Source: Kiritimatiellia bacterium (GTDB lineage: Bacteria > Verrucomicrobiota > Kiritimatiellia > RFP12 > UBA1067). Taken from it: 44,455 nucleotides of DNA. The translations under genes and the position numbers were made by a program. Of this stretch, positions 14,043 through 29,656 are shown in pieces. Each line of letters opens with the position of its first letter. Positions within the stretch are counted from its first letter, which is position 1. The stretch spans positions 1-44,455 of the forward strand of contig JAFVZE010000350.1 of the NCBI GenBank assembly GCA_017508315.1. Direction: 5' to 3'. The notes beneath the pieces were generated by a model. The model saw only the letters and a program-made list of their open reading frames with translations, searched no databases and was not told where the DNA came from.

Positions 14043-14088
14043 TTTTTAAGCGGTTTTGAAAAAAAATTAAAAAATCTTAAAAACGCGC

Positions 14089-14118
14089 TTGACGGTAGGT
14101 GCTACCATTTGGTAAGAT
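14089..14118 (+). promoter_or_regulatory. Sigma70-like early promoter with operator O1 in its spacer
   Basis: TTGACG (14089-14094), an 18-nt spacer, then TAAGAT (14113-14118). It is preceded by an A/T-rich UP-like stretch (14043-14088) and followed by an RBS GAAAGGA and the RHH1 ATG at 14148. Spacer length and consensus applicability in this phylum are uncertain. Confidence 0.55.
14093..14107. promoter_or_regulatory. Operator O1 (cGGTAG-GTG-CTACCa palindrome)
   Basis: The core GGTAGGTGCTACC (14094-14106) is identical to the cores of O2 and O3. It lies between the -35 and -10 elements. Confidence 0.6.
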
Positions 14119-14147
14119 GTCTGCGTCAGGTCAAGAAAGGATTGAAA

Positions 14148-14384: not shown

Positions 14385-14388
14385 GACG

Positions 14389-14556: not shown

Positions 14557-14596
14557 TGCCCTTGTACGCCTGCCGACGGTCTTTTTTTTGGGGCCG

Positions 14597-14613
14597 TTGG
14601 TAGGTGCTACCAA
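14597..14613. promoter_or_regulatory. Operator O3: perfect palindrome TTGGTAG-GTG-CTACCAA
   Basis: Exact 17-bp inverted repeat, immediately upstream of the RBS GAAGGAGG and the ATG 14628 of RHH3. Confidence 0.65.
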
Positions 14614-14627
14614 ATGAAGGAGGTCTG

Positions 14628-14795
14628 ATGTCTGTGAAATATATCGCGGTTCCGTGCGACGACGAGCTCTACCGGGCGGTCGTTGAGGCTGGCAAGCGCT
14701 CCGGCCTGAAGCTCGGGCCGGAATGCGCCCAGAGACTCCGGAAGGTTTACCGGGTCGGCGTTTTCGCGCCGGTCAAGAAAGGCGGCGCGAAATGA
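14628..14795 (+). CDS. Ribbon-helix-helix-like small DNA-binding protein 3
   Basis: 55 aa from ATG 14628 (RBS GAAGGAGG): MSVKYIAVPCDDELYRAVVEAGKRSGLKLGPECAQRLRKVYRVG.. It has a beta-strand plus two helices. The RHH assignment is weaker than for proteins 1 and 2. Confidence 0.5.
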   Translation: MSVKYIAVPCDDELYRAVVEAGKRSGLKLGPECAQRLRKVYRVGVFAPVKKGGAK

Positions 14796-15088
14796 AACCG
14801 GCGACGGCGAACGCGATCAAGGCGCTGCTCAAGATGGACGCGACGGTGACGACGAACGAGCGTTTGGCTATCGTCGAGGCGATGTCGGCGAAGCCGTCGT
14901 CGGCGGCGGCGCTCGATCTGGCCGGGGAGGTCTCGGTCGCTGATGCGGCGGACTATCTTTCGATGTCGCGCACTACGCTTTGGCGGATGTGTTCGCGCGG
15001 CGACGTCTGCGCGGTCCGGCGCGGGAAGAAATATTACATTGCGGGCGCGGACGTGGCGAGGCTCAAGTCGGCCAAGGAGGTGGCATGA
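14792..15088 (+). CDS. Excisionase/AlpA-like helix-turn-helix DNA-binding protein
   Basis: 98 aa from ATG 14792 (ATGA overlap with the preceding stop). The C-terminal motif VSVADAADYLSMSRTTLWRMCSRGDVCAVRRGKKYYIAGADVARL is typical of the HTH_17/Xis/MerR-like excisionase fold. Confidence 0.7.
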   Translation: MKPATANAIKALLKMDATVTTNERLAIVEAMSAKPSSAAALDLAGEVSVADAADYLSMSRTTLWRMCSRGDVCAVRRGKKYYIAGADVARLKSAKEVA

Positions 15089-15270
15089 GCCGTAGGCTGG
15101 TGTGTGAACGGTGTCCGAAGTGGCGGCGCGGCGTGTCCGTCTGTCTGTTTCGCGGAGTCGTGATGCTCGGTGATTATCCGGTCTGTGATCACGGGCGGCT
15201 CTTCATCAAGCGCGAAGCGAGCCGTCTGTGGATGGCTAAAAACGCAAAGACCAAAAAGGAGGCGCGATGA
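15085..15270 (+). CDS. Small Cys-rich (zinc-binding-like) protein
   Basis: 61 aa with an ATGA overlap: MSRRLVCERCPKWRRGVSVCLFRGVVMLGDYPVCDHG... (CxxC ... C ... CxH). Confidence 0.5.
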   Translation: MSRRLVCERCPKWRRGVSVCLFRGVVMLGDYPVCDHGRLFIKREASRLWMAKNAKTKKEAR

Positions 15271-15416
15271 AATTTTTTCTTTATGTTTTGGAGGCGGCGC
15301 TGATCGCTATGGCGATCGCGGCACTCGTGGCGGTTAAACGCGAGGAGGCCAGGGCGGCGGCGGAGCTTGAGTCTGCGCGGGCGGCGCGTGTGGAGATGAT
15401 GGGAGGTGCGCTATGA
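15267..15416 (+). CDS. Small membrane protein (49 aa; below the track cutoff)
   Basis: Own translation from ATG 15267 (ATGA overlap): MKFFLYVLEAALIAMAIAALVAVKREEARAAAELESARAARVEMMGGAL*. It has one TM helix. Confidence 0.4.
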   Translation: MKFFLYVLEAALIAMAIAALVAVKREEARAAAELESARAARVEMMGGAL

Positions 15417-15592
15417 AAAGACCGCGCATCAAGTTCCTGGTGTTCACGGGGGCGGCGTGGTGGCCGACGTGGGCGGTTTCAGAGGCGCAGGCGATCTCGA
15501 ACGTTGAGTTCCGGATGCGCCAGGCCGGGAAGTTTCCGGTGCGATCGCAGTTCGAGGTCCGCCGCGCTGACATGAAGGAGGCGGTGAAGTGA
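15413..15592 (+). CDS. Small hypothetical protein (59 aa; below the track cutoff)
   Basis: Own translation from ATG 15413 (ATGA overlap): MKRPRIKFLVFTGAAWWPTWAVSEAQAISNVEFRMRQAGKFPVRSQFEVRRADMKEAVK*. Its stop overlaps the GTG start of the next gene (GTGA). Confidence 0.35.
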   Translation: MKRPRIKFLVFTGAAWWPTWAVSEAQAISNVEFRMRQAGKFPVRSQFEVRRADMKEAVK

Positions 15593-17547
15593 GTTCAATC
15601 GATGCTGAAAAGGAACGCTGGGTCAAGGCGTGGTCCCGCAAGAAGAAGATGCTCGGGCCGAAGAAATGGGCGGAGCTCGTCGCGCTTGTTGAAAACCGGA
15701 TGATCGACCATTTGACGCAGGCCGCCGAAGCGGTCACGATGTCAAAGGAGGTCCTGGGCGGGCAGCAGTTCTTTGGTGTCGCGCGTGCGCCGCGCGTGCC
15801 GGATGAGCCGGAATGGATGGAATCGCGATTCTCGATCTTCACGACGGTCGCGGCGGACGGTCAGCCGGTCGCCTACGTGGTCACGCTGAGGTGCTGGGCG
15901 GACTGGGATTGCAAGACCGCGATCGAGTTGAACAAGTCGATGGTGTCGCGAGTCTGCTCGGATCGGCGCTTGAGCTTCTCTACCCGCGCCCAGACGGAAG
16001 TGCAAACGAGGACGGTCATCATGTGGATGCGTCTGCGCGGGTCGTTCTTTTGGAATAAGAACCAGAAAATCAACAACGCGAATCTGTACTTCGATTCCGC
16101 GTCGAACATTCTGCGCGTCATTCATTCCGACGATTTCAAGTCGTGGATCCATGCGCATTCGCAGATCAATCCGGCGAAGGCCGACTTCGATTTCCTGATG
16201 CATCAAATAGACTCTGCGGCGATGAATCCGGAGATCTCGCGCGAGTGCGTTCCTGGGGCGCTCTTCGACCGGCGCGGCGATGTGATCTATGTCTCAAACG
16301 GCGACGCGTCGATGGTGCGCGTCCGGGCGGCGGTCGGCGGGGAGCCGGTGGTCGAAGTTGTGCCGAACGGCACGGACTCGGTCGTGTTCACCCAGGGGAT
16401 GACGCTCCAGCCGTGGGAGATCGTCGACGGCGAGGGTGAGGATCCGTTCGAACATTGTCCGCCGTTCTCGACAGCGAATTATCAGAGCGAACACGGGAGG
16501 ATGATTGCTCGGCTGTGGTTTCTCGGGCTGGTCTCGTGCCTGCGCTCCTACCCGGCGATTGTGTTCACCGGCAGGATGCGCTCGGGTAAAAGCCGAACGG
16601 CTAAGGGTGTATTTGAGCTTCTCGGCGCTCCGGTTCGGCTCTCGGCCATCCGGGCGAACGGCGAAAACGATTTCTGGACCGTCGTCAATAAGGGCGGTGT
16701 GGTCTGCTTCGACAATGTCGACACTAAAAACGCCTGGTTCGGTGACGCCATGCAGCTTGCGTGTACGGACGGCTCGACGGAATCGCGGACGCTGTTCACG
16801 AATGACCAGACCACGACGCTTCGGGCGAATGCCAAAATCGTCATGACCTCTAATAATCCGATGTTCGCGTCGGAGTCTGGTCTCGCTGACCGGCTGCAGA
16901 TCGTGCGGCTCGAGCAGTTCGATGGAAAGAATGGCAAGGAGTCCGGCGACAGCTCGATCACGGAGGCGATTGCTAAAAAGCGCGACTCCGCGCTGACGTG
17001 GCTGGTGCGGACGGTTTCCCGCGCCCTGGCCGACTCCGAGGACGTGGAACCTAACGTCAATATGCGGCATCCGGACTTCGCGGCCTTCTCGATGCGCTGC
17101 GCCCGCGCCCTGTCGTCTGACGCTTATAAGCAGTCCATCTTGGCGCTTAAGTCGGCCGAATTCGACAAGGCTCTGCTGACGATTCAAAACAACTCAACGA
17201 CGAATTACATCTTCGAGGCGCTCTCGGCGAGGTTCACGAATCCGGTCTTTGCCGGTCAGGAATGGGACGGCACGGCGTCGGACATGATGGACGCAATCGT
17301 CGAAATTCATCCCGACTTGGAGAAGTCGAAATACCTCTCTGCGACTTCGATAGGTAAGGCGCTCGGGCGGTATTTTGATCAATTCGCCGTGTTGTTTGCG
17401 ATGCGTCCGCCGCGAAAGTATGGAAGTCAGACCAAGTATCTCGTCTCTGGCTTTTCGGATATGTACGCGAAAAACGTCGAGGTTCTCGAGGGAAAATCCA
17501 AGATAACTCCTGAAGGATCTGAGGAGGCTCTGGCCGACTTCTTATAA
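15589..17547 (+). CDS. Replication protein with a C-terminal SF3 (P4-alpha/D5-like) helicase NTPase domain; N-terminal ~330 aa unassigned
   Basis: 652 aa. Walker A FTGRMRSGKSRTA, Walker B GGVVCFDNVD and SF3 motif C IVMTSNNP occur in the correct order and spacing. I could not recognise any primase (AEP or DnaG) motif in the N-terminal half. Confidence 0.7.
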   Translation: MSSIDAEKERWVKAWSRKKKMLGPKKWAELVALVENRMIDHLTQAAEAVTMSKEVLGGQQFFGVARAPRVPDEPEWMESRFSIFTTVAADGQPVAYVVTLRCWADWDCKTAIELNKSMVSRVCSDRRLSFSTRAQTEVQTRTVIMWMRLRGSFFWNKNQKINNANLYFDSASNILRVIHSDDFKSWIHAHSQINPAKADFDFLMHQIDSAAMNPEISRECVPGALFDRRGDVIYVSNGDASMVRVRAAVGGEPVVEVVPNGTDSVVFTQGMTLQPWEIVDGEGEDPFEHCPPFSTANYQSEHGRMIARLWFLGLVSCLRSYPAIVFTGRMRSGKSRTAKGVFELLGAPVRLSAIRANGENDFWTVVNKGGVVCFDNVDTKNAWFGDAMQLACTDGSTESRTLFTNDQTTTLRANAKIVMTSNNPMFASESGLADRLQIVRLEQFDGKNGKESGDSSITEAIAKKRDSALTWLVRTVSRALADSEDVEPNVNMRHPDFAAFSMRCARALSSDAYKQSILALKSAEFDKALLTIQNNSTTNYIFEALSARFTNPVFAGQEWDGTASDMMDAIVEIHPDLEKSKYLSATSIGKALGRYFDQFAVLFAMRPPRKYGSQTKYLVSGFSDMYAKNVEVLEGKSKITPEGSEEALADFL

Positions 17548-17650
17548 TCTTTATAAGGTTGCGAGGCCGTTTTCCCATTAAGAACTAAAAATACCAATTT
17601 TCCACCTACGTATTCAAATCAATGGTTTAAGGTTATAAACCTTATAAAAT
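17541..17650. promoter_or_regulatory. A/T-rich intergenic region with nested TTATAAGGTT-type palindromes (candidate origin or regulatory site)
   Basis: CTTATAA-TCT-TTATAAG (17541-17557). TTATAAGGTT (17551-17560) has its inverted partner AACCTTATAA at 17638-17647. A local palindrome AAGGTT-ATA-AACCTT lies at 17629-17643. A further TTTAAGGTT occurs at ~18212. Confidence 0.35.
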
Positions 17651-17653
17651 GAA

Positions 17654-18139
17654 ATGAAGGATAAAACGATAGCTGAGTTGATTCATGACCGGGTGTTTGC
17701 CGAGGGCGGAACGCTGAACGTCTGGCTCTCTGGCGCGAAGTTCCGGAAGTTGACGACTCGGATCAACGCTCGAACTTGTCATTCAGCGACCGCCGAGGAG
17801 TCGATGGACTGCCTGGTGGAATTCAAGCCGTCGCCGGAGTTGGCGACGATGATCGCTCGGAATGCCGACGAGCTACGGGGCTATCTGTCCGGAATAGTCC
17901 GGAATTGGGCGGCCGAAGTATCGGCTCGCAGATCTCGCCTGGCCGGTTCGGCACGGGTCCTTCCCGGAGGTTTCGAAGCCGTCTCTCAAAGGTCAAAAGG
18001 TCCGGATATTTGCGACTGTCACGGCGGGATGAGGTCGGCGATTTCAGAGCGTGGGCGAAAAATTACCGGCGCGGCGGTAATTGCGGCGGTTTTTTGTGGT
18101 TTTGCAGGTCTCGGACGGCCTTTTGTCGGTGTTCTCTGA
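17654..18139 (+). CDS. Hypothetical protein (the 3' third is doubtful as coding)
   Basis: 161-aa ORF. The first ~95 aa look protein-like with GC-rich third positions. The last ~65 codons have weaker third-position bias and contain a hairpin plus T-run (18061-18095). Confidence 0.4.
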   Translation: MKDKTIAELIHDRVFAEGGTLNVWLSGAKFRKLTTRINARTCHSATAEESMDCLVEFKPSPELATMIARNADELRGYLSGIVRNWAAEVSARRSRLAGSARVLPGGFEAVSQRSKGPDICDCHGGMRSAISERGRKITGAAVIAAVFCGFAGLGRPFVGVL

Positions 18140-18286
18140 AATCGGCGGCGGTGCGCGTGATTCGGCGGCCGTCGGCGGGGTCGAAATGGGTCAACGTTCA
18201 AGTTTTAAGGTTGAAAGACCGGGCGTGGGGAGCGGGTGTTCGCCGCGTCGGCTTTCGTGAAAAAAAAAGAAAGGAAAAAAACGAAA

Positions 18287-19699
18287 ATGGAAAAAATCAA
18301 ACTGAAAACGCTGCGGGTTGCGGAGCTTGAGCACGCACCGTGGAATCCTCGGTCGGAGGCGGAGCTTGATTGGCAGAATCCGCGCATGGTCGAACTCATC
18401 GAGTCTGTCCGTGCGGGCGGCATCGCGCAATCGCTCGCGGTCTGGGAGTGCGACGACGGTCAGAATATCGTCATCGCCGGAAACCGCCGTCTCGAGGCGG
18501 CGCGGGCCGTCGGTCTTGCGTCCGTTCCGGCGCTGGTGTTCTCCGGAATCTCCGAGGCGCGGGCGCAGGAGATCACGCGCACCGAGAACGAAATCCGTCA
18601 AGGCGTGGATCCGCTGCAGGATGCTCTGCTTATCGAGCGGATGCTCTCCAAGGGAGTCGACCAGAAAACGATCGCGGCGCATTTCGGAATGTCGGAGGCG
18701 ATGGTCTGCCGCCGCGCCAAGCTCATCAATCTCGACGACTCCGTTCGCGCCGTCGTCGCGGAGGGCGGAAATATCGCAATCGACGCGCTCGAGCAGATCG
18801 CGCTTTATCCGGCGGACGTCCAGCGTCGGTGTTCGGCGGAGATTCGGCGCTACTCGAACACGTCCGGCGTTGTGCGGTGGCGCGATATCTCCTGGAAGAT
18901 TAAGCAGATGACTCGTTCTCTCGATGATGCGATTTTTAACACGTCCTGCTGTGTCGCGTGTCCGAATCGCACCGGAGCCCAGCCTGACCTCTGGGCGGAG
19001 ATTCCGGAGGACGGGAAGCTCGGCGACTGCATCTGCAGTGAGTGTTTCGAGCGGAAGGTCCGCGAGTTCGATCTCGGTCGCATCCGCGAAATCGTCGGCG
19101 ACGGTGTCGAGCTTGTCGATGCGAATGAGGCGGGGCTTGAGTCCTGGCGCGCGGATCGTCTCGACTGTTTCGCGCTCAAGCGCTCTGCTGACTTTCCGGT
19201 CGCATGGTATTGGATCAACGATTATGAGTCCGACGCGTCCGATCGCTACAACCTGCGCTACGGTCCTACGCTCGAAGACTACCGCGCGTTCGAAGAAGCC
19301 GAAGAAGAACGTCGCGACCGTGAACGTGAAGCCGCCGAAGCTGAATCCGCCGAAGCCAAGGCGAAACGTGCCGAGCGCCGCGCTCTCGACGACGAGGTTG
19401 AAGGCTGCGTGAGTCGCATTCTGTCCGGTCTCGGCGGTGAGGATCACGCCAGTTTCAAGAAGGCGGTCAAAAAGTGCGTCGCCGGTGCCACGCTCAAAGG
19501 TGCCGCCGCGACCATGCTTGCGCAGATCATCAACGACTGGTGGACGTACGACGCCAACCCTAACGAATCGATTGAGTTCCTGGTGGCCGTTCCCGGTTTC
19601 GCCAAGGCGCTGAAGGTCGAAAAAGAAAACCTCGACGCCTACAAGGCCGCGCTCAAAAAGCTCGAAGCCTGGGATAAGGCAAACAGCTGCAAAGCCTGA
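18287..19699 (+). CDS. ParB/Srx-fold N-terminal domain protein with a Cys-rich middle region and an acidic coiled-coil
   Basis: 470 aa from ATG 18287. ParB N-domain motifs: VAELEHAPWNPR, IVIAGNRRLEAARAVG, and an HTH segment KTIAAHFGMSEAMVCRRAKL. Then CCVACPNRTG..CICSECFERK (a zinc-finger-like cluster) and an EEAEEERRDREREAAEAE stretch. Confidence 0.7.
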   Translation: MEKIKLKTLRVAELEHAPWNPRSEAELDWQNPRMVELIESVRAGGIAQSLAVWECDDGQNIVIAGNRRLEAARAVGLASVPALVFSGISEARAQEITRTENEIRQGVDPLQDALLIERMLSKGVDQKTIAAHFGMSEAMVCRRAKLINLDDSVRAVVAEGGNIAIDALEQIALYPADVQRRCSAEIRRYSNTSGVVRWRDISWKIKQMTRSLDDAIFNTSCCVACPNRTGAQPDLWAEIPEDGKLGDCICSECFERKVREFDLGRIREIVGDGVELVDANEAGLESWRADRLDCFALKRSADFPVAWYWINDYESDASDRYNLRYGPTLEDYRAFEEAEEERRDREREAAEAESAEAKAKRAERRALDDEVEGCVSRILSGLGGEDHASFKKAVKKCVAGATLKGAAATMLAQIINDWWTYDANPNESIEFLVAVPGFAKALKVEKENLDAYKAALKKLEAWDKANSCKA

Positions 19700-19782
19700 T
19701 CCGTTCTGGAACACCGCAAGGTTCAAGGCGTGGCGGTCCGGAGAGACGGGCGTTTCGTACAAAAAAATGAAAGGATGACAAA

Positions 19783-20019
19783 ATGAAATTACTGTTGATT
19801 GCCTTTTTGGCCTGCGCGTCTGTCGGCTGTGACAATCCAGACTGCTGGGAGTTTTGCGCCGTGGTTCCGAAAGGGGCGACGGTGTCTGAACTGATGGATT
19901 GCGAGAATATCTTGAGGTCGAACGGGTATAGACGAGTCGATGTCAATGTGTCTTGTAGTGGTAGTTATTTTATTCATGCGACACGAACCGATTCAAAAAG
20001 CAAGGAGGGCGCCAGGTGA
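19783..20019 (+). CDS. Small secreted protein or lipoprotein
   Basis: 78 aa: MKLLLIAFLACASVGCDNPDCW... It has a signal peptide with Cys residues in lipobox-like positions. The DNA is visibly A/T-richer. Its stop overlaps the GTG start of the methylase gene. Confidence 0.5.
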   Translation: MKLLLIAFLACASVGCDNPDCWEFCAVVPKGATVSELMDCENILRSNGYRRVDVNVSCSGSYFIHATRTDSKSKEGAR

Positions 20020-21395
20020 AAAACGAAACTCTGAAACTGTCCTTGTTCGCGGAGAATCCGGACAATCCGCAGACGGTGACCGACGAAGCCTTCGCCGATC
20101 TCGTCGCGTCCGTCCGCCGCGATCCTGAAACGCTCGCGGCCAACAAGATCGCGTATTGCACCGACTACGTTTCGCCCATCTCCGGCGAATCGTTCGCGGG
20201 ACGACGCATAGTCATGGCCGGAAACAAGCGCCTGCGCGCGCTCAAGAAGATCTATGGCGAGGACGGCGAGGTTCCGGCCGACTGGTTTTTCGACCTGACT
20301 CCGCTCGGAGTCGAGGCTCGCCGTCGCTGGCTGGTGCGCTCCAACGTCCAGACTGGCGAGTGGGAGGCTGAACTGCTGATGAAGCTGTATTCGAAGGATG
20401 AGCTGTCGTCTCTCATGTCTCCGGATGCGCTCGACGAGATATTCACCGCTTTCGATGCCGCTCCGGCGGCGAAAGGCAAAAAGGACGCCGACGCCGTTCC
20501 CGCCGTAGACGCCGCAGAACCTCCTTCGTCTCGTAGGGGGGGGGTGTACGCGCTCGGTCCGCATCGGCTCATGTGCGGCGACTCCACGTCTCTCGAGGAC
20601 GTTGCGCGTCTCATGGGCGGCGTCAAGGCCGACCTGCTCGTCACCGATCCGCCGTACAACGTCGACTATCAGGGGGCAGCCGGTAAGATCATGAACGACT
20701 CCATGGGCGATTCCGATTTCATGAAGTTCCTCGTCGACGTCTATTCCGCCGCCGATTCCGCGCTCCGCTGCGGAGCGCCCTTCTACATCTGGCACGCGGA
20801 TTCGGAAGGTTTCAACTTTCGCGGCGCGGCGCGTGCCGTCGGCTGGCAGATCCGTCAATGTCTCGTCTGGGTCAAGGATTCGCTGGTCCTCGGTCGCCAG
20901 GATTACCAATGGCGGCATGAGCCGTGTCTCTACGGCTGGAAGGACGGCGCGGCGCATACGTGGCGAGGCGGACGTAAGCAGACGACCGTCGTCGAGCTTA
21001 TCCCGGAATCCGTCGAAACCGACACCGCCGCCGGAGTCGTCCGCTTCCATGTCGCGGGTCGGTCGTTCCAGATTCCGCTCGACGCCGTCTGCGAAGTGGT
21101 CGACTTCACCGCCATCCCGATGCCGAAGCCGACCGTCTCCAAGCTCCATCCGACGATGAAGCCGGTCGCGCTCTTCGCCTATCAGATCCGCAATTCGTCC
21201 GAGCCCGGCGCGGTGGTTCTCGATCTCTTCGGCGGCTCCGGCACGAGCGTGATCGCCTGCGAGGAGACCGGCCGCAATTGCCGCGCGATGGAGCTCGATC
21301 CGAAATTCTGCGACGTGATTCGCCGCCGGTGGGCCGAATTCGTCCACGGCGACGGCTGCGACTGGCTGTCGCTCACTCCGGAGGTGGCTTTATGA
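20016..21395 (+). CDS. ParB-like domain fused to a beta-class N6-adenine/N4-cytosine DNA methyltransferase (N6_N4_Mtase type)
   Basis: 459 aa. N-terminal ParB-like motifs (ENPDNPQTV..; IVMAGNKRLRAL). MTase motif IV DLLVTDPPYN precedes motif I VLDLFGGSGTSVIACEETGR, which is the beta-class order. HPTMKPVAL is also present. Confidence 0.88.
   Translation: MKNETLKLSLFAENPDNPQTVTDEAFADLVASVRRDPETLAANKIAYCTDYVSPISGESFAGRRIVMAGNKRLRALKKIYGEDGEVPADWFFDLTPLGVEARRRWLVRSNVQTGEWEAELLMKLYSKDELSSLMSPDALDEIFTAFDAAPAAKGKKDADAVPAVDAAEPPSSRRGGVYALGPHRLMCGDSTSLEDVARLMGGVKADLLVTDPPYNVDYQGAAGKIMNDSMGDSDFMKFLVDVYSAADSALRCGAPFYIWHADSEGFNFRGAARAVGWQIRQCLVWVKDSLVLGRQDYQWRHEPCLYGWKDGAAHTWRGGRKQTTVVELIPESVETDTAAGVVRFHVAGRSFQIPLDAVCEVVDFTAIPMPKPTVSKLHPTMKPVALFAYQIRNSSEPGAVVLDLFGGSGTSVIACEETGRNCRAMELDPKFCDVIRRRWAEFVHGDGCDWLSLTPEVAL
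20536..20543. repeat. G8 homopolymer inside the ParB-methyltransferase CDS (inter-domain linker)
   Basis: tcgtaGGGGGGGGtgtac encodes ..SRRGGVY.. between the ParB-like and MTase domains. Confidence 0.9.
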
Positions 21396-21598
21396 TCTGG
21401 TTGAAGTTGTTGTTTGCGCATCTGTTTTTTCGGCGGTGCGGAAATTGTGCAAATGCAAAGGTTCATCCGTGGGCGACGTTCACTTGCGGATGTGTTTGCG
21501 ACGATCCGGATATGTTTGGGCAGATGCCTTTTCACCATGTGTGTGACGGGCCGTGTAAAAAAATTCGCATTCTTCAAACAAAACGAAAGGAAAAATAA
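21392..21598 (+). CDS. Small Cys-rich protein
   Basis: 68 aa from ATG 21392 (ATGA overlap; RBS GGAGGTGG): MIWLKLLFAHLFFRRCGNCANAKVHPWATFTCGCVCDDPDMFGQMPFHHVCDGPCKK.. It has 8 Cys and a hydrophobic N-terminus. The DNA is A/T-richer. Confidence 0.45.
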   Translation: MIWLKLLFAHLFFRRCGNCANAKVHPWATFTCGCVCDDPDMFGQMPFHHVCDGPCKKIRILQTKRKEK

Positions 21599-21601
21599 AA
21601 A

Positions 21602-22011
21602 ATGAAGCAAACCTCTGAATTCGTCTCTCTCGGCCATCCGGACAAGATCGCCGATTTCGTCAGCTCCTATCTGCTCGACCGCTACCTCGAGCGCGATCCG
21701 TTCACCCGCTATGCGGTCGAATGCCAGATCAAGGACTCGATGGTCACGCTCGGCGGCGAGGTCACATCGTCCTACGCGATGCCGCTCTCCGAGGTACGTG
21801 TCCACGTGGCGGACGCCGTGCGGTCGGCCAGGTTGTCACGGCGACCGGCTTTGCGAACGGCTACGCGAAGGAGTTCACCGACAAGGAAGGCAAAAAGCGC
21901 ACCATGTATGGCGTCCGGTTTCGGCTCACGGATCTGGCGAACGGGTGCGATGGGGCGTCGACTGGCCCGTCTGCTGCTGCCGACGATGGCGACGATGACA
22001 TTCCGTATTGA
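21602..22011 (+). pseudogene. Frame-broken chimeric gene: MetK (SAM synthetase) N-terminal-domain homolog continuing in the -1 frame into an SSB-like C-terminal segment with a DDDIPY tail
   Basis: Frame A (from 21602): [63 protein letters not shown]. This aligns by eye with E. coli MetK residues ~6-85 ([58 protein letters not shown]). The homology continues only after a -1 shift near 21826-21830 ([10 protein letters not shown] ~ IGYVHSDMGF). The sequence then reads [19 protein letters not shown]...[15 protein letters not shown], with its stop at 22009-22011. Confidence 0.6.
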
Positions 22012-22020
22012 TCTGAATTT

Positions 22021-22039
22021 GGCCGGATCGGTTCCGGCC
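22021..22039 (+). terminator. Hairpin directly after the -1-frame stop of the MetK/SSB chimera
   Basis: GGCCGGA-tcggt-TCCGGCC, a 7-bp GC stem with no clear T-run. The frame-A ORF would have to read through it to its stop at 22040-22042. Confidence 0.35.
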
Positions 22040-22060
22040 TGAAACGAGAAAGGATAAAAA

Positions 22061-22645
22061 ATGGAAATCAGCAAGTATGCCGCGTGGATGCGCAAGTGTG
22101 CGGAGGCGGCTCGCACAACGGATCCGAAACTGACGAAGGCGCAGCGTCGGAAGTTCACAAACGAGATTCAGTCCGAGTACCGCGGTCTCGCGGCCCTGCT
22201 CGACCGCGTCGACAACCTTCGGGCCAGCTCGACGCCTGGTGCCGCGTCGACACTTGACAAGCAGGAGCTGATGAACGGCATCTGTGCCGTGTTCGGTGTC
22301 AAAGCGCCGCAGGTCGAGTACACCGATGCCGACCTGCAGCTGATGCTGAAGCGTCGCTTCGCGTCGGAAGGCATGACGTTCGGCTTCGCGCTCGAGGCGA
22401 TGAAGATCGGATGCAAGGTTGCGCGTAAGTCCTGGGCCGGATTCGGTAACGTCTACCTCTGGCTGCTGCCGGAGTCAACGATCAAGCGTGAGTGGGTGAA
22501 GGACAAAATGCTCGCGGAGTGCTTTGTCGCTGACGAGCTCGTTTGTCACGGGGCCATCCGAATGAAAACGGCGAACTGTAAGGTTCTCACGGGCTGGGTT
22601 CCGGACGGGGACGAGCTCTTGGCCGAGGACTGGGTTATCGTCTAA
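22061..22645 (+). CDS. DUF2829-domain protein (Tad2-like candidate anti-Thoeris sponge) with a ~95-aa N-terminal extension
   Basis: 194 aa. The C-terminal ~95 aa, MTFGFALEAMKIGCKVARKSWAGFGNVYLWLL..IRMKTANCKVLTGWVPDGDELLAEDWVIV, matches my recollection of the DUF2829 pattern (FG.AlealK.GkkvaRkgW.g.........MKTadg.i..W..sq.D.LAeDW). Confidence 0.7.
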   Translation: MEISKYAAWMRKCAEAARTTDPKLTKAQRRKFTNEIQSEYRGLAALLDRVDNLRASSTPGAASTLDKQELMNGICAVFGVKAPQVEYTDADLQLMLKRRFASEGMTFGFALEAMKIGCKVARKSWAGFGNVYLWLLPESTIKREWVKDKMLAECFVADELVCHGAIRMKTANCKVLTGWVPDGDELLAEDWVIV

Positions 22646-24924
22646 TGGCCGAGCAGCTCGATCAAATCAAAGCCCTGGCTGCGCAGGGCGTAAACCTCCG
22701 AGACGCCGAGGCCGTTATCGGTCGTGCGTTCACGCCAGAGGAGGTTCAGTCCTTCCGCAAGATTGCGACGCTGCGTCGGCTGCGTCGGTCTGCCGAGGCC
22801 CAGGAGGCGGCGCGGAAGCGCCGTCTCGCGCTCGAGGCGGAGCAGAAGGCCAATCTCGAGGCCCAGCTTGCCGGTACCGATCCGGACTGGGCGTCGAAGA
22901 TTCGCGGCCCGAAGTCGGCCCTTGACCGCCAGCACGAGCACCGTGCTCGCGGTCGGGAGCTTCGCTCGATCCCGCCACCGCGTCGGCGTCGGGTGCGGGA
23001 GCGCTACCGCTTCGACCTGCTGGGGTTCGGTCTCGCCTACGGCGTCGGCAAGTACGAGGGCATGAAGCCGCTCCTGAAGCGCCCACCTTCCCTTCGGATG
23101 GTGCGCTTCGTCCGTGCGCTTCAAGAGAAGATCCTGCACGGCGGTCTGAAGCACGTCCGTTGGCCGCGTGGGAAGGGAAAGTCGACCTGGGTGAAGATCG
23201 CGATTCTCTGGGCGGCTCTCTACGGTCACAAGTTCTTCATGGTCGTGGTCGAAAAGACCAAGGGCATGGCGCAGGTCGTGGTTGAGGAGATATGGAAGCG
23301 GATCTATCTGTCGCCGCGTATCTCGGTGGACTTTCCGGAGTTCGCCGTGCCGATGCGGGACGTCGAATTGTCGCCGCAGCGGATGCGGTCGCAGACCTAC
23401 CACGGTAAGCCGACCTACATGAAGCAGGATATCGTGAAGTTCTGCTACTACAAGCTGCCGACTGTGGACGGGTTCCCGCAAACCGGCGCGATCATCGCGT
23501 TCCGCGGTGCCGACCAGGCGCTCCGCGGAATCAATATCGAGTCGGCTCGTCCGGACTTCTTCTTCATCGACGATCCCTGCTCCGATACCGACGCCAAGAA
23601 TCCGGCGACCTGCGACAAGATCGAGGACAACATCAACGGTGCCGTCCTCGGCTCCGGTGAAATCAACGAGCGCATCTCGGCGGTCATGGCGTCGACGGCA
23701 ATCGAACCGGACGACGTCAGCGAGCGGTTCGCGGATCCGGCAAAGCATCCGGAGTGGCAAACCGAAACCGAGCGGCTCGTCACGACGTTCGGGCCGCAGG
23801 AGATGGTCTCGAAGTACCTGAAGCTCGCAGAAATCGACGAGGCCCAGGCGCACGAGTGGTACGCGGCGAATCAGGCGGCGATTGAGGTCGGCGTCGAAAT
23901 GATGGATGATCGGGACTTCGTTGAAGGAGTCGAATGCTCGGCCTACGAGCACGCTCTCTATCTGCTGCACACCATGAAGCCGACGCGGTTCTATTCCGAG
24001 TACCAAATGGCGCCGTCTCGGTCGCAGGGCATCTACAAGATTTCGCCGAAAATGATCCGCGAGCGCCTGAACGGGCATCCGATGGGCGAAGTTCCGCACG
24101 AGTGCGACCAGGGCGTTCTGGCGTTCTGCGACGTGAATGCGGTCGCCGGTCTGCGGTGGGAGATCTGTGCGTTCGGCAAGGGCCGCGTAACGGCGACGCT
24201 TGCCTACGGGCAGTATCCGGCGAACGGCGAGCGTCTCTATCCGAAGGGAATCCCGAAGTCGGCCATTCCCGACTACCTGGCTCCGGCGATCCGCACCGTC
24301 GCCGAGGTCATCATGGGCGTGGAGCTGAAGGACGAGCTCGGCGAGCCGGTAAAGGTTCGCGGCATCTGCTTCGATGGTGGCTGGATGACCGAGTGCGTCG
24401 CCAGCACCGTGGCGGACCTCTATGCCGGTGGACTGAATTGCTCCTGGTCGAAAGGTTACAACTCGAAGGAGTATTCTCGCTACCATCACGAGGCCGCTGC
24501 GTCCGGCAAGATCAAAGGTCTCAAGGCCGCGGAGGAGTGCCATACCTGGGCCACCGCAAACGGCACGTATCTCGCATTCAATTCGGACTATTGGAAGGAG
24601 GTTTCGCAAACCTCGTATCTCGCGGATCCGCTCTCGCGTTCGTCATCGTCGTTCTTCGGAACGGATAAGCTCACGCATCATCAGTTCGCCCAGGAAATCT
24701 GCAACGAGGAGCTCAAGGCGAAGGACAAATCCACAAAGTACGGCCACGTCTATACCTGGGCGAAGGATCCGTCAAGGCCGAATCACTTCGGCGACGTCCA
24801 TGCTGGTGTGCTCGTCTATGGCGCGATCCGTGGAAACTTCGACCGCATCGCCGCGGTCATCAAAGCCGAGTCGCTCGTCAAGGTTGCAAAGCATCGAAAA
24901 GTTCGCTATGTCTACAAGGGGTAA
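22645..24924 (+). CDS. Terminase large subunit with a ~130-170-aa N-terminal extension (possible fused small-terminase/DNA-binding module)
   Basis: 759 aa. Walker A VRWPRGKGKSTW sits unusually far in, at residues ~172-183. Walker B-like PDFFFIDDP is present, and the C-terminal half is nuclease-sized. The gene lies immediately upstream of the gpW-like and portal genes. The N-terminus is HTH-like (GVNLRDAEAVIGRAFT), followed by a coiled coil and a basic tract. Confidence 0.8.
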   Translation: MAEQLDQIKALAAQGVNLRDAEAVIGRAFTPEEVQSFRKIATLRRLRRSAEAQEAARKRRLALEAEQKANLEAQLAGTDPDWASKIRGPKSALDRQHEHRARGRELRSIPPPRRRRVRERYRFDLLGFGLAYGVGKYEGMKPLLKRPPSLRMVRFVRALQEKILHGGLKHVRWPRGKGKSTWVKIAILWAALYGHKFFMVVVEKTKGMAQVVVEEIWKRIYLSPRISVDFPEFAVPMRDVELSPQRMRSQTYHGKPTYMKQDIVKFCYYKLPTVDGFPQTGAIIAFRGADQALRGINIESARPDFFFIDDPCSDTDAKNPATCDKIEDNINGAVLGSGEINERISAVMASTAIEPDDVSERFADPAKHPEWQTETERLVTTFGPQEMVSKYLKLAEIDEAQAHEWYAANQAAIEVGVEMMDDRDFVEGVECSAYEHALYLLHTMKPTRFYSEYQMAPSRSQGIYKISPKMIRERLNGHPMGEVPHECDQGVLAFCDVNAVAGLRWEICAFGKGRVTATLAYGQYPANGERLYPKGIPKSAIPDYLAPAIRTVAEVIMGVELKDELGEPVKVRGICFDGGWMTECVASTVADLYAGGLNCSWSKGYNSKEYSRYHHEAAASGKIKGLKAAEECHTWATANGTYLAFNSDYWKEVSQTSYLADPLSRSSSSFFGTDKLTHHQFAQEICNEELKAKDKSTKYGHVYTWAKDPSRPNHFGDVHAGVLVYGAIRGNFDRIAAVIKAESLVKVAKHRKVRYVYKG

Positions 24925-25219
24925 GTCGAACGGGCGTTCTGTCCGTATGTCCATCGAAATCGAAGGTATGGGTGTGAAGTTCGATGTTCTGCCGGGGCCG
25001 CAGCGGCTCCCTGCCATGCATCTCACCGAGTGTCGATGCTGCCACTCGCGGGTCTATTTCAGGGCGCGTTCGTCGACGCCGTCGACGGATCCGGCGTTCA
25101 AGGTCGAGTATCTCTACTGTCCGGTCTGCGGGGCCACGGCCACCCAGGTTCGCGAGGTCGAGGTGCTGCCGAAGTCGGCCCTGAAACGGCGAAAGGTCGA
25201 ATGCCGCTATCGGGCGTGA
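24908..25219 (+). CDS. Small zinc-ribbon protein
   Basis: 103 aa from ATG 24908, overlapping the terminase 3' end by 17 nt. It contains ..LTECRCCHSRVYF...YLYCPVCGATA.., i.e. two CxxC-type pairs. Confidence 0.45.
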   Translation: MSTRGKSNGRSVRMSIEIEGMGVKFDVLPGPQRLPAMHLTECRCCHSRVYFRARSSTPSTDPAFKVEYLYCPVCGATATQVREVEVLPKSALKRRKVECRYRA

Positions 25220-25234
25220 TTTGATACTTCAAAT

Positions 25235-25267
25235 GGGCCGCGGCAGTCGTTCCGCGGCTCTCTTTTT
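25235..25267 (+). terminator. Rho-independent terminator at the end of the early/packaging transcription unit
   Basis: ggGCCGCGG-cagtcgtt-CCGCGGCtc, a 7-9 bp GC stem, followed by TCTTTTT. Confidence 0.7.
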
Positions 25268-25283
25268 GTAGTTTCTACAAAAA
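25263..25283. promoter_or_regulatory. Palindrome TTTTTGTAG-TTT-CTACAAAAA upstream of the structural operon (operator variant)
   Basis: Perfect 9+9 inverted repeat with a 3-nt spacer. It shares the GTAG-N3-CTAC core and geometry with O1-O3 (TTGGTAG-GTG-CTACCAA). TTGACG follows 18 nt downstream at 25301-25306. Confidence 0.5.
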
Positions 25284-25373
25284 ATATCAGGGTTTGGCCC
25301 TTGACGGACTTGCGGCGTTATAACACCTGGTGCTATTCTGTTGCCGTCGAGAGCGAATGGAGACCGACCTGAA

Positions 25374-25634
25374 ATGACAAGAAAAGACGCCGAAGTACGG
25401 GTGAAAAAACTGCAAGCGCAGCGTGATGCGCTTGTGGATCAAATTGCCGACGCCGATGTCACGTCGGCGACGATTTCTGCCGGTGGCGGGTCGAAGTCCT
25501 ACACCAATCGGTCGGTGGACGATCTGAAGAAGAAGGTTGCTTTCCTTGACCATGAAATCGCAAAGCTCGAAGCTCGCCTGGGCTACCGCTCCCATCCTGG
25601 CGCGATTCGGCATATCTTTCCGAGGTACGTCTGA
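25374..25634 (+). CDS. gpW-like head-tail joining protein
   Basis: 86 aa from ATG 25374: MTRKDAEVRVKKLQAQRDALVDQI...SYTNRSVDDLKKKVAFLDHEIAKLE. This resembles lambda gpW as I recall it (MTRQEELAAARAALHDL...FTATSVSDLKKYIAELE). It occupies the gpW position between terminase and portal. Confidence 0.55.
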   Translation: MTRKDAEVRVKKLQAQRDALVDQIADADVTSATISAGGGSKSYTNRSVDDLKKKVAFLDHEIAKLEARLGYRSHPGAIRHIFPRYV

Positions 25635-27307
25635 TGAAGCTCTGGCCGTTCAGCAAGCGCAGTAATGGTTCCGTCAGCTGGTCATCGCTCTCCGATGCCC
25701 AGCGTCGCCTGGTGGCTCGCAAGATCGCCGGTGCCGCGATGGAGCTCGGCGCTCGTGCTCACTTCGGCAAGGGGTACGAGGCGGTCACGCTCCCGTTCTC
25801 CGAGCAGCGCCGTCCGTCCTACATCGAGACCAAGGGCGAGGACGGCCAGCTCTCCGCTCGTGACCGCAATCGGATAGTCAATCTCCACCGCGACATGATG
25901 CGGAATTCTCCGACTCGTGTCGCTCAAGACCAGCAGATCCGCGTTAATGTCGTGGGTTCTGTCGGGGGCAAGATGTACGCTTCGTTCCCGCCGGCGTTCG
26001 CGAGTGCCGCGAATAAGGTCATGGAGTATTTTAACAAGACCTGGTTCCCTCGTGCCGAGTTCACCTTCAGGAAAAATTTCAACTGGTTGCTGAAAACTGT
26101 CCTCACGGCAGAGGACACGAACGGGAACGTCATCCTGGTTTTCGACGATGGGATCCTCACGGGCGGCAACGGCACGGGACGCATCCGCGGGTTTGAGGGC
26201 GACGAAATCGGCAACGTGCCGGAGCTTGAGAAGTTCTTCCCGAAGGGATTCGTGCAGTCGCACGGTCTCGTCTACAACAAGTCGGGGATGTTCACCGGTG
26301 CGTTCGTCTCGACCGTGCAGCGCGAGAAGATCCAGCGCGGCAAGGGTACGCTTGATCCGAAGCTCGGCGTGGTCGTGCTGAAGCAGGATCCGTTCGCGGA
26401 CGATCAGCTCGTGAATTGGATCCTTCTCGGCGATATGCGGCGCTTCAATCAGGGACGTGCCGTCTCGCCGATCACCGCAGCGATCACGTGTCTCATCGAC
26501 CTGCACGAGACGTGCGCGTCCGAGGCCCAGGCGGCGAAGATCAATGCGCAACTCGTCGGACAAATTCTCTCGGATGCGTCGGCGGACGAGGACACGTCCG
26601 GCGCTGCCGCGTTCGAGGACGAGCGTCCGGATGGTAAGGCCCTGCCCGAAACGAAGGAGTTCACGACGAAGGAGCTTACGGCCATCGGAGCCCACTTCGA
26701 CCAGATGCCACCGGGGCTGAAAATCGATCTCTTGCGGACCGAGCGGCCCAATCCAAATATGCCCGCCTACATCGAGTTCCTTACGGGGCTCGTCGGCGGG
26801 ACTCGCGGTCTCGCTCGCGTCTATGCGACGCTCAAGGCCCAGACCAGCTACACCGCGTTCCGCGGCGAGCAGGTCATGACCGCGCCGAGCTTCGAGGAGG
26901 CCCGTGCGGATCTCGAACGCGAGGTCTGCGATTGGGCGGCTCAGTGCGTCATCACTCGTGCCGTCCGTCTCGGTCTCATCACGGACGCCCTGCCGGACGG
27001 CTGGGAACATATGATCGCCTGGCGCTGGCCGAAAATGCGCGAGGTGTCCGAGAAGGATGCGCAGACCGCTCTGAAGCTCAAGTTCGAGAACGGCGTCACG
27101 TCTCTCTCGCGTGAGCTCGGCCCTGGCGAGGTTGAGAAGATCATCGCCGAGCGAGCTGCTGAAAAGGCGAAATTTGAAGCCGTGGGTCTCGCCTATCCTG
27201 GCGAGGCGAAGGAGAAGGATCCAGCGGTCAAAACTGTGCCGGAGGATGGTTCCGAAGGCGAAACTGAAGACGACAACAACGGAGGTAAAAATGCCGACGA
27301 AGAATAA
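25634..27307 (+). CDS. Portal protein (lambda gpB-like by position)
   Basis: 557 aa. Its start overlaps the gpW-like stop. It is followed by an overlapping protease/scaffold gene and has an acidic C-terminus (EDGSEGETEDDNNGGKNADEE). The call rests on size and synteny. Confidence 0.75.
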   Translation: MKLWPFSKRSNGSVSWSSLSDAQRRLVARKIAGAAMELGARAHFGKGYEAVTLPFSEQRRPSYIETKGEDGQLSARDRNRIVNLHRDMMRNSPTRVAQDQQIRVNVVGSVGGKMYASFPPAFASAANKVMEYFNKTWFPRAEFTFRKNFNWLLKTVLTAEDTNGNVILVFDDGILTGGNGTGRIRGFEGDEIGNVPELEKFFPKGFVQSHGLVYNKSGMFTGAFVSTVQREKIQRGKGTLDPKLGVVVLKQDPFADDQLVNWILLGDMRRFNQGRAVSPITAAITCLIDLHETCASEAQAAKINAQLVGQILSDASADEDTSGAAAFEDERPDGKALPETKEFTTKELTAIGAHFDQMPPGLKIDLLRTERPNPNMPAYIEFLTGLVGGTRGLARVYATLKAQTSYTAFRGEQVMTAPSFEEARADLEREVCDWAAQCVITRAVRLGLITDALPDGWEHMIAWRWPKMREVSEKDAQTALKLKFENGVTSLSRELGPGEVEKIIAERAAEKAKFEAVGLAYPGEAKEKDPAVKTVPEDGSEGETEDDNNGGKNADEE

Positions 27308-28598
27308 GTTCAAGCCGATGAAGACCCGCTTCCGGGCGACCTTCGCCGGTGTGCAGCTTGGCGACAAGCTGCTCGAATCTGTTGATAAGGAGAACGAGGT
27401 GCTGCACGGGGTGCAGATCACGCTCGAGGGCGAGGCGCGCGGTCACGGCGTCTGGCTCGACCGCGAGTTTTGCGAGGCGGTCGCCGCTGCCGGAAACGCC
27501 ACGGGCGACGTCGGCGTTAAGGTGCGCTATGGTCATCCGGCCATGTGCTCGGACGCTATCGGCACCGAGCTGGCCCGTGCGAAGAATTTCAGGGTTGTGG
27601 TTTTGGATCGGGACAAGTCGGTCGACGGCGAGGACGTCAGCGCCAAGGGCGTGGCGGGTGTGCTCGCGGACGTCTACATCTTGAAGTCCGCTCATTCGGC
27701 TCCGCTTGGCGATATCGCCAAGCACGTGATGGAGACCGCTGCCGAGGATCCGAAGCAGTTCGGGCAGTCCATTGTTTTCACGTATTCCGACTGGGTCGTG
27801 AAGGACAAGGACGGCGTCCGTCATTCCTATCGCGAGGAGGTCATGGGCGTCGATGCCGAAGGTAAGGTCATCGTCGGCGAGGACGGCAAGGCGAAGGATC
27901 GAATCTCCGAGGATGCTTGGAAGGCGCAATCTGCCGACGGCAAGGAGTACGCCGTGCTCGGTAAGTTCCTGGGGACGGACTTCACGGACACTCCGGCGGC
28001 GACCGACGGCATCTTCTCCACGGGGACTCTCGCGGAACGCGTCGAGGACATCCTGGCGGAGAATCCTGAAATCATGGACGTCCTCGAAAAGTCGCCGAAG
28101 AACGTCATGGAGTTCCTCGAGCGCACCGGTCTCGACAAGCGGCTCGAGTCCGTCCGTGTCGCCGGTCTCCAGGCGGCGAAGGATAAGGAGATCGCCGAGC
28201 TTCGCGTGGCGAAGGACGGCGATCTTGCCGCTCTCCAGGCGAAGTTCGATGCTTACAGGAAGACGGCCCAGGACGCTGCCGAAGCGCAGCTCAAGGAGGC
28301 GCTTGGGAAGAAGGACGAGGAGATCTCGAAGCTCGCGTCCGAAGTCGAAGGTTTGAAATCCGGCCATGTCAAGGATGCCGAGGCCCTTGCCGCTCACGGG
28401 TGTGAGTCGGTTGAGCAGCTTTGCGGCAAACTCGACGAAACGACCAAGGCCCTTTCGGAAACGAAAGCAGCCCTGGATCGTGAAGCGAGGCGCTATCGCG
28501 AGCAGGTCGGTGTCGCGTTGGCGATCCCGCATGGCGACGTTGCGGGGCTGACTGGGCGTGATCGTGCGCTCGCGGCTCTCGCGTCTCGTGCGCAGTAA
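27291..28598 (+). CDS. Prohead protease fused to a coiled-coil scaffold domain
   Basis: 435 aa from ATG 27291 (RBS GGAGGT). The N-terminal half has HK97/S78-like patterns (VRYGHPAM..AIG; GQSIVFTY). The C-terminal ~130 aa is an A/K/E-rich coiled coil (LQAAKDKEIAELRVAKDG..LKEALGKKDEEISKLASEVEGLK). The ORF-track start at 27111 lies in the portal overlap frame and is not supported. Confidence 0.6.
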   Translation: MPTKNKFKPMKTRFRATFAGVQLGDKLLESVDKENEVLHGVQITLEGEARGHGVWLDREFCEAVAAAGNATGDVGVKVRYGHPAMCSDAIGTELARAKNFRVVVLDRDKSVDGEDVSAKGVAGVLADVYILKSAHSAPLGDIAKHVMETAAEDPKQFGQSIVFTYSDWVVKDKDGVRHSYREEVMGVDAEGKVIVGEDGKAKDRISEDAWKAQSADGKEYAVLGKFLGTDFTDTPAATDGIFSTGTLAERVEDILAENPEIMDVLEKSPKNVMEFLERTGLDKRLESVRVAGLQAAKDKEIAELRVAKDGDLAALQAKFDAYRKTAQDAAEAQLKEALGKKDEEISKLASEVEGLKSGHVKDAEALAAHGCESVEQLCGKLDETTKALSETKAALDREARRYREQVGVALAIPHGDVAGLTGRDRALAALASRAQ

Positions 28599-28639
28599 CT
28601 GAATCAATCACTTTGCTCTACTGAAAGGAAAAAGTAAAA

Positions 28640-29656
28640 ATGGCTAAGATTATTGATCTTGTGACGAATGCCGGTCAGGTCGACGTCACCAAGGGCATCG
28701 TCGAAGAGGTCATCAAGGTCGTTCCGGAGCTCGAGTTCTTCGATGCGACGACGATCAAGGGTACGACCATCTCGACGCTGGCGCGTACCTCGCTGCCGAC
28801 GGTTGCGTTCCGCAACATCGGCGATCCCGTCTCGAGCAGCCGCTCGACGTTCGAGGAGCGCGAGGCGACCTGTAAAATGCTCTCCGGTCGTGCGGAGATT
28901 TCGGACGCCGAAATCAAGAAGAATCCGCTCATGACGCAGGACGAGCAGTGCGTGGACGAAGCCGTCGCGACGCTGACTGCCGCTGGCAAGACGCTGGCGA
29001 AGCAGATCTGGTACGGGCCGGGTGTGGCGGATGCGAAGGGCTTCGACGGCGCGGTCAATCTCGTCGATGCGTCGATGATCACGAAGGCCGGCAGCGGCAC
29101 GGCTGGCGCGAACACCTCCGTCTGGTTCCTCTGCAATGGCGCGAAGACGGCCTGTGGTCTCCTCTTCTCCGAGAATTCCAAGATCCTCGGAACGGAGGAT
29201 CTTGAGTTCCGTCATGGCGACATCGAGATCAAGGAGAAGAAGACCGTGCTCGTTCCCGACGATGGCGAGGAGTCCGGCTTCAGGGAGGAGGAGATTGAGT
29301 ATGTCGTTGGCGTCGAGCCCGGCATGATCGGCGACCTCACGAGCTACGCGGCGTTCCACGTGGCGAACGAGAAGCAGCTCATGCGTCTCTGCAACGTCAC
29401 GGCGGCCACCGGTCTCACGGACGATATGCTGCGTGACTGCATCGAGGCGTTCGCCGAGGTGAACAACGGCAAGCTGCCGGACGCGATCTTCATGTCCTAC
29501 AGGGCCAGGAAGATGCTCCGCAAGAGCCGCACCCTCACGATGCAGGTGAAGTCCGGCGTGAATGCGCAGGTGTTCGCTCCGACCCCGGTCGACTGCGACG
29601 GCATCCGCATCATCGCGACGGGCGCGATCCTCGACACCGAGGCGGTCGTTTCGTAA
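28640..29656 (+). CDS. Major capsid protein (HK97-fold by position and size)
   Basis: 338 aa. It lies immediately after the protease/scaffold gene and has an AAAGGAAAAAG RBS region. Two strong hairpins follow it. Confidence 0.7.
   Translation: MAKIIDLVTNAGQVDVTKGIVEEVIKVVPELEFFDATTIKGTTISTLARTSLPTVAFRNIGDPVSSSRSTFEEREATCKMLSGRAEISDAEIKKNPLMTQDEQCVDEAVATLTAAGKTLAKQIWYGPGVADAKGFDGAVNLVDASMITKAGSGTAGANTSVWFLCNGAKTACGLLFSENSKILGTEDLEFRHGDIEIKEKKTVLVPDDGEESGFREEEIEYVVGVEPGMIGDLTSYAAFHVANEKQLMRLCNVTAATGLTDDMLRDCIEAFAEVNNGKLPDAIFMSYRARKMLRKSRTLTMQVKSGVNAQVFAPTPVDCDGIRIIATGAILDTEAVVS

Follow-up and report, generated by a model that had tools for sequence, protein, structure and literature searches.

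We argue that the 146-codon open reading frame (ORF) at positions 21602-22042 of the DNA analysed here, a Kiritimatiellae MAG contig of 44,455 nucleotides (hereafter the window), is very probably the scar of one recent 1002-bp deletion in a Kiritimatiellae prophage, and that the locus, as judged from comparison with its relatives, is an ordinary broken gene pair rather than a designed chimera. A preliminary description had read it as the N-terminal domain of S-adenosylmethionine synthetase (MetK) joined to a tail of the single-stranded DNA-binding protein (SSB) type across a -1 frame break, and had left three options, a decayed mosaic, an assembly indel or a functional chimera. The first of these was essentially right, in that the region is intact in relatives and the window lacks 1002 bp between 7-bp repeats; programmed frameshifting, an artefact and a new function jointly retain very little of our confidence. 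Loci of this kind, microhomology-mediated deletion pseudogenes, are already known. The main value of the analysis is thus a correction: the NCBI entry for the 146-aa ORF (MBR2983539.1, “hypothetical protein”, Kiritimatiellae bacterium MAG) is a fusion artefact that the deletion created, and there is no reason to follow up the apparent MetK/SSB chimera as an anti-defence effector. An incidental gain is a family, hitherto unannotated, of very small OB-fold proteins that resemble SSB; they have a conserved SSB-type tip and are encoded directly upstream of terL in a group of phages of gut Kiritimatiellae.

The evidence that carries this interpretation comes from intact relatives. The closest of them are two metagenome contigs, L006 and L007, which run collinear with the window to the left and to the right of the scar (96.7% and 99% identity): window 20740-21826 aligns with L006 1-1086 at 96.7% identity and window 21820-22490 aligns with L006 2082-2751 at 99.0% identity, the two alignments overlapping by 7 nt in the window. 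L006 carries an intact metK of 346 aa (862-1902) and, 11 bp after it, a separate gene of 119 aa (P0003; 1914-2273). Its MetK matches PHROG 1569 over the whole length (E 1.2e-67) and, in Pfam, the N domain (4e-19), the C domain (2.4e-14) and, weakly, the M domain (1.5e-3). A deletion is likewise evident from comparison with the more distant L001, L003 and L004, and in these and in L010 the gene order is N6/N4 DNA methyltransferase, MetK of 339-346 aa, a gene of 115-119 aa and the large terminase. A search for intact versions in relatives, which had been proposed earlier, therefore finds two full and separate genes in L006/L007 and in L001, L003, L004 and L010; homologs in which the two frames are independent ORFs had been named in advance as the observation that would speak against a chimera. 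Consistently, the conceptually repaired protein retrieves two separate sets of matches, MetK N-domain proteins with its first half only and proteins of 115-124 aa with its second half only (P0002, P0003, P0004, P0006, P0008 and P0010). The reverse history, an ancestral fusion followed by an insertion in L006, was also considered and is ruled out, because both L006 genes are full-length and belong to families with independent homologs. When the region was compared with GenBank phages by blastn, only the methyltransferase gave a match, and a weak one.

Absent from the window are metK from codon 76 to its last, 346, the spacer of 11 bp, and the small gene up to and including its codon 56. Both breakpoints in L006 carry the heptamer GCGGTCG: one copy, at 1080-1086, spans metK codons 73-75, and the other, at 2082-2088, falls on codons 57-59 of the small gene (119 aa). 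Up to 21826 the window aligns with the left copy, and from 21820 with the right copy, the offsets differing by 1002 bp, and it keeps one copy of the repeat at a gap that is otherwise precise when set against L006/L007. This junction sits within cggtcggcc, where the frame break had been placed, and the coding frame does change at 21820-21826, as both the alignment and GC3 indicate: GC3 is highest in frame 0 over 21602-21819 (0.82) and in frame 2 over 21827-22011 (0.73). Since the small gene of L006 starts 1052 nt after the start of metK, and hence in frame +2, and since a loss of 1002 bp, divisible by 3, leaves this offset unchanged, the two genes are joined out of frame, and what had been described as a -1 frame break is best read as an out-of-frame deletion joint. 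The remnants have barely diverged, metK (21602-21826) being 100% identical in nucleotide sequence to L006 862-1086 and the ssb remnant differing from L006 at 1 nt; the deletion is therefore recent.

The ancestral order, which the close relatives still show, was N6/N4 methyltransferase, 346-aa metK, 11-bp spacer, 119-aa SSB-like gene, Tad2-like gene and terL. A single 1002-bp deletion then joined the GCGGTCG of metK codons 73-75 to that of SSB-like codons 57-59; to judge from the 7-bp repeat, replication slippage or another form of RecA-independent illegitimate recombination at microhomology is the likely mechanism. As a consequence, the metK start now drives an ORF of 75 MetK and 71 nonsense residues, and the SSB-like C-terminus is left without a start codon of its own. 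Because most of the MetK fold and active site is gone, and because only the last OB strands and the tail of the other protein are kept, both genes would have been inactivated, the 146-aa ORF being a non-functional by-product. All of this resembles other microhomology-mediated deletion scars in prophages, which arise between short direct repeats: here a precise deletion between 7-bp repeats has kept one copy, and two neighbouring accessory genes, each truncated, have been fused out of frame between flanks that are otherwise collinear with those of intact relatives. Compared with the usual scars of this type there is nothing unusual about the window, which stands out only because, the event being recent, each remnant can still be identified. 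The features concerned are collected in Table 1.

Table 1. Features of the prophage and of the deletion scar (window positions)
Feature	Position	Strand	Remarks
Prophage carrying the scar, ~30.4 kb	12380..42744	.	perfect 46-bp direct repeat at both ends
Integrase	12569-13672		
N6/N4 DNA methyltransferase, 459 aa	20016..21395	+	upstream of metK; Pfam PF01555, E 1.3e-22
Putative accidental fusion ORF, 146 aa	21602..22042	+	75 MetK residues, then 71 Arg/Ala-rich out-of-frame residues across the ssb remnant
5' remnant of phage metK	21602..21826	+	own ribosome-binding site region, ATG, codons 1-75, GHPDK motif
Deletion junction	21820..21826	+	single kept copy of the 7-bp direct repeat GCGGTCG; from alignment to L006
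3' remnant of SSB-like (OB-fold) gene	21820..22011	+	codons 57-119 and stop, in a frame 2 nt downstream of that of metK
Hairpin GGCCGGA-TCGGT-TCCGGCC	22021..22039	+	7-bp stem; spacer separating the ssb stop from the Tad2-like gene
Tad2-like (DUF2829) protein, 194 aa	22061..22645	+	Pfam PF11195, E 3.9e-14, residues 105-194
Terminase large subunit, 759 aa	22645..24924	+	PHROG 38, E 6e-15, residues 135-466
tRNA-Arg(CCG)	42699-42775	-	contains the right repeat

The MetK part of the ORF had been identified correctly, its first 75 or so codons being those of a MetK N-terminal domain. Residues 3-65 match positions 4-66 of the 99 in Pfam PF00438 (S-AdoMet_synt_N; E 8.9e-17, 61.9 bits against a cut-off of 33.1), and the 146-aa ORF matches PHROG 1569 (E 7e-16), the family of phage MetK to which its first 75 codons belong. 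Beyond residues 65-67, the Pfam scan gave no MetK match in either the window ORF or the conceptually repaired protein. The window copy thus differs from phage MetK in lacking both the C-terminal domain (PF02773) and the central region (PF02772, to which the intact relative itself shows only a weak match), and it falls far short of the full length of ~340-400 aa; on this sequence evidence it is a fragment rather than a member of the enzyme family, and cannot act as an enzyme. The further claim that the MetK alignment runs on in the shifted frame, up to a likeness to IGYVHSDMGF, turned out to be a coincidence: intact MetK continues AVRSIGYTMEYLKRWG, and the shifted-frame segment corresponds to residues 58-67 of the separate small protein.

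Some observations on other metK sequences belong here. In L018 (649-1665; also L019 and L020, protein P0012), phage contigs from anaerobic digesters and ENA samples, metK is interrupted in frame by one TAG, in place of a conserved Trp (..EYQNM*DKENT.. against ..EYQQKWGADNT..), after which the frame stays open for 225 codons. P0009, a diverged relative that differs from P0012 at several residues, terminates where P0012 does; this could reflect reassignment of the stop codon, read-through or a pseudogene common to both. A class of proteins consisting of the MetK N domain only was considered as well. The short MetK-N matches were all of <=238 aa despite the existence of intact 346-aa relatives, which suggests a length bias of that search, and several of them are frameshifted or adapter-chimeric assemblies. 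The metagenomic MetK-N match P0005 contains the peptide GAEMCIRDRS, which we take to be a translated Nextera transposase adapter, and some short MetK-N proteins in the databases are for this reason adapter-chimeric assembly artefacts.

The second half of the locus had been likened to the last OB-fold strands, linker and acidic tip of bacterial SSB. The ssb remnant does comprise the two final long beta-strands, a disordered linker and the acidic tip DDDIPY, its frame ending in ...DDGDDDIPY* with the stop at 22009-22011. Translated, it gives 62 residues (AVGQVV...DDDIPY) that match the C-terminus of the intact protein P0002 with 100% identity. In E. coli SSB the C-terminal tip is DDDIPF; among 18 aligned members of the small family, the motif [DE][DE][IVFM]P[FY] ends 17, the remaining one ending in L, so that a linker followed by an acidic-hydrophobic tip is found both in the family and in the window. 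An AlphaFold2 (AF2) model of intact P0002, built from 18 diverse sequences, reached a pLDDT of 85, with a core above 95, residues 101-119 disordered and the tail below 50; it replaces an earlier run with 7 near-identical sequences, for which pLDDT was 59. When this model was compared with the PDB by Foldseek, the top 50 matches were all SSB or PriB, the best being Rim1 (6cqm_D; E 2e-5, TMt 0.74), followed by SsbA and PriB, and its structural matches in BFVD were mostly phage SSBs. The intact 119-aa protein is thus confidently modelled as a divergent mini-SSB with an SSB/PriB-like OB fold. A complete SSB-type OB-fold core is present in intact P0002 only, the window keeping residues 57-119 and hence an incomplete fold.

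At the level of sequence profiles the resemblance finds no counterpart. In Pfam and PHROG at E <= 1, neither PF00436 nor a phage SSB PHROG was matched, and no match was obtained for the window remnant, for this part of the conceptually repaired 136-aa protein, for P0002, for P0008 or for the 18 family members, the sole Pfam exception among the latter being one DUF3127 match (E 0.029). The family profile likewise gave only chance matches with PDB sequences (E > 0.3). The likeness to SSB claimed earlier is therefore upheld by the OB-fold model of the intact relative and by the conserved tip, but not by any Pfam or PHROG profile. An exhaustive HMMER scan of 1.8 billion representative proteins (50% identity representatives) returned 20 matches at E <= 0.001, of which ~14 are family-sized (P0003, P0065-P0076 and P0081; 104-127 aa); the other six are longer proteins, each aligned over a number of short segments, and probably have no relation to the family.

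What the family shares with SSB is accordingly an intact form with a single OB fold, a disordered linker and a conserved acidic tip. It differs in being much shorter (105-127 aa), in showing no profile similarity to Pfam SSB or to any PHROG, and in its place, which is always immediately upstream of terL and not in a replication module; the remnant in the window differs further in comprising only the last 63 residues and in having no start codon. The SSB-type tail in the window is thus the tail of a separate mini-SSB and not part of a chimera. Intact genes of 105-127 aa are found at L001 4813-5160, L002 595-942, L003 1673-2020, L010 8001-8348, L013 6001-6366 and L015 4236-4616, and in every relative examined the mini-SSB gene lies immediately upstream of the large terminase gene or abuts it. 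The position directly before the large terminase is usually held by the small terminase, and from this gene order the mini-SSB might conceivably be associated with packaging instead of serving as an SSB in replication.

We next consider whether the allele itself might matter. The exact 146-aa ORF occurs on 15 contigs (ENA, Logan and NCBI), against 4 contigs (L006-L009) for the closest intact form, and the 40-nt junction is identical in 11 of the 11 further loci read (L005 and L021-L030), whose scars differ at 0-1 nt; over 4040 positions L005 and the window show 3 differences, and L021 has the same chromosomal neighbour, an alpha-galactosidase (melibiase) gene, followed by the integrase. Because the junction is identical in 11 other contigs, and the ORF present on 15, from several projects, we regard the scar, on the strength of these concordant assemblies, as a real allele, a near-clonal prophage variant that has spread, and not as an assembly indel. 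Searched for as a string of 22 nt, the junction did not occur in IMG/VR or in the metagenome contigs of JGI and had two matches in GTDB representative genomes, a Spirochaetia MAG, whose locus shows no similarity to the window beyond these 22 nt, and Nonomuraea, presumably a chance match in a high-GC genome.

Such a wide spread, together with the retention of an AAAGGA-type ribosome-binding region and an ATG at the start of the 146-aa ORF, could conceivably indicate a new function. The scar ORF, with its 75 MetK residues and its basic tail of 71, might be dominant-negative toward MetK oligomers, or the loss of metK and ssb might be adaptive, allowing escape from a defence that senses phage SSB; phage-defence studies have found that phage SSBs can trigger some abortive-infection systems. 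We consider this quite improbable. The copies are essentially clonal, so that their abundance is better explained by the spread of one prophage lineage than by selection on the ORF; both known variant alleles (n=2) alter the product, P0098 changing R to H in the nonsense tail and P0001 changing Y to D in the MetK part; and MetK residues 1-75 are unlikely to fold alone, given that the domains in MetK crystal structures are built from discontinuous segments. The out-of-frame tail has no homologs other than copies of the same allele (P0001 and P0098). Nor is the identity of the exact-match contigs evidence of selection, because these contigs were chosen by exact protein match; it reflects the search method and the recent origin of the allele. 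The 146-aa polypeptide may possibly be expressed, or may even have gained some activity. More generally, that the allele is non-neutral, with the ORF acting on host SAM metabolism or with loss of metK and the mini-SSB selected as an escape from defence, seems to us improbable; if the loss had indeed been selected, it would represent a natural escape mutant spread through gut Kiritimatiellae populations.

A genuine chimera is a highly improbable alternative. Here ribosomes would shift by -1 near 21826 and thereby produce a fusion of ~136 aa, a MetK N domain with an SSB tail, which would hit host MetK or recruit SSB partners. In its favour, the two frames both stay open through the junction, the MetK part and the SSB-type tip can each be recognised, and the neighbours, a DNA methyltransferase and a Tad2-like gene, are likely to be anti-defence genes. 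However, the metK frame contains no heptamer of the form X XXY YYZ over 21602-21900, just as the preliminary description had noted, and the only homopolymer is an A5 downstream of the junction. The two-frame layout was not inherited but made by the 1002-bp deletion between separate genes, and there are no diverged homologs with the fusion, only near-identical copies of one allele; neither a slippery site nor an architecture kept in diverged homologs, the two marks of a programmed -1 frameshift, is thus found. Moreover, of MetK the product would hold 75 residues out of 346, and of the five strands modelled for the OB core only the final two. With an out-of-frame join and 75/346 and 63/119 residues left, the earlier suggestion of a protein that hijacks SAM supply or the SSB interactome receives no support.

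The shifted frame had also been thought to gain support as the genuine end of the gene from a hairpin that follows its stop. This hairpin does exist at 22021-22039, but it is not unusual: its MFE of -16.3 kcal/mol corresponds to z = -1.7, and 9/200 shuffles fold equally well. It has no T-run, and a terminator scan found nothing there on the + strand. It is therefore not a canonical terminator and not statistically unusual, and the spacer in which it lies aligns at 99% to L006, which has intact genes. The stop of the fusion ORF is located 31 nt past the ssb stop.

Finally, the window is a metagenome-assembled contig and is judged here from assemblies, but it can scarcely be credited that its junction is an artefact of sequencing or assembly, whether an indel or a collapse, since the identical junction recurs in 11 independently assembled contigs (ENA, Logan, several sample accessions), among them the independent assembly L005, since a 7-bp repeat is far too short for assembly collapse, and since the difference from the relatives is a deletion of 1002 bp and not a 1-nt indel.

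The deletion scar lies in a prophage integrated at a tRNA gene, the 46-bp direct repeats (12380-12425 and 42699-42744) corresponding to the 3' part of tRNA-Arg(CCG). Cellular genes occupy 1-12380 (secretin, PilN-like, GFO/IDH/MocA oxidoreductase, GDSL lipase, GH39 and alpha-galactosidase). Exact-sequence matching of two of the host proteins encoded in the window gave no match, and the assignment of the host is based on the names that NCBI gives for the phage proteins of the window. Within the prophage, the integrase is followed by an HTH_17 protein, a 652-aa protein, a ParB/KorB-like protein, the methyltransferase and the scar, and the scar by the Tad2-like (DUF2829) gene, TerL, a lambda-type portal and a GP7-type capsid protein. 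The methyltransferase is found at the same position in L001, L003, L004, L010 and L013, and terL is 93.7% identical in nucleotide sequence to L001-L003. In the L006 lineage the Tad2-like gene stands between the ssb gene and terL, and the gene called downstream of ssb in L006 (2322-2750) aligns to the Tad2-like region of the window at 99%; the Tad2-like gene is absent from L001-type relatives, where the ssb-like gene abuts terL.

Among phages, those of Streptococcus included, annotated homologs of MetK are common, and viral metK has been described as an auxiliary gene that often accompanies dcm (bioRxiv 10.1101/2021.01.05.425418). Our phages share this arrangement, the relatives carrying the 346-aa gene beside N6/N4 and C5 DNA methyltransferases. 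The position of metK beside one or two DNA methyltransferases is consistent with a supply of SAM for protective methylation. Within the phage group metK is variable, being absent from L013, shortened in L015 and deleted in the window; the mini-SSB gene is conserved in every other relative examined, L013 having it without any metK, and in the window it has been lost together with metK. In the more distant L015 (2504-4109) the methyltransferase is called as 190 + 87 aa and MetK has only 262 aa, which suggests that the accessory module of methyltransferase and metK decays in other members of the phage group too.

Several minor observations concern the neighbouring genes. The 194-aa protein consists of an uncharacterised N-terminal part of ~100 aa and a C-terminal domain of 90 residues that is Tad2-like (Thoeris anti-defence 2-like). 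In TerL, the first ~130 residues form an unexplained basic and helical-looking extension ahead of the profile match, and the NCBI annotation of the protein is shorter (643 aa, MBR2983542.1). In L021 terL is called as two pieces (209 + 548 aa), which could reflect either further decay or an assembly error. A Cys-rich ORF of 68 aa, with no family match, is located at 21392-21598 on the + strand (RRCGNCANAK...CGCVCDD...CDGPC); its ATG overlaps the methyltransferase stop, and it fills the ~200-bp spacer before metK, a spacer that is absent from L001-type relatives. In L006 its version has two residue changes, and the C-terminus is frameshifted by a 1-nt difference in an A-run.
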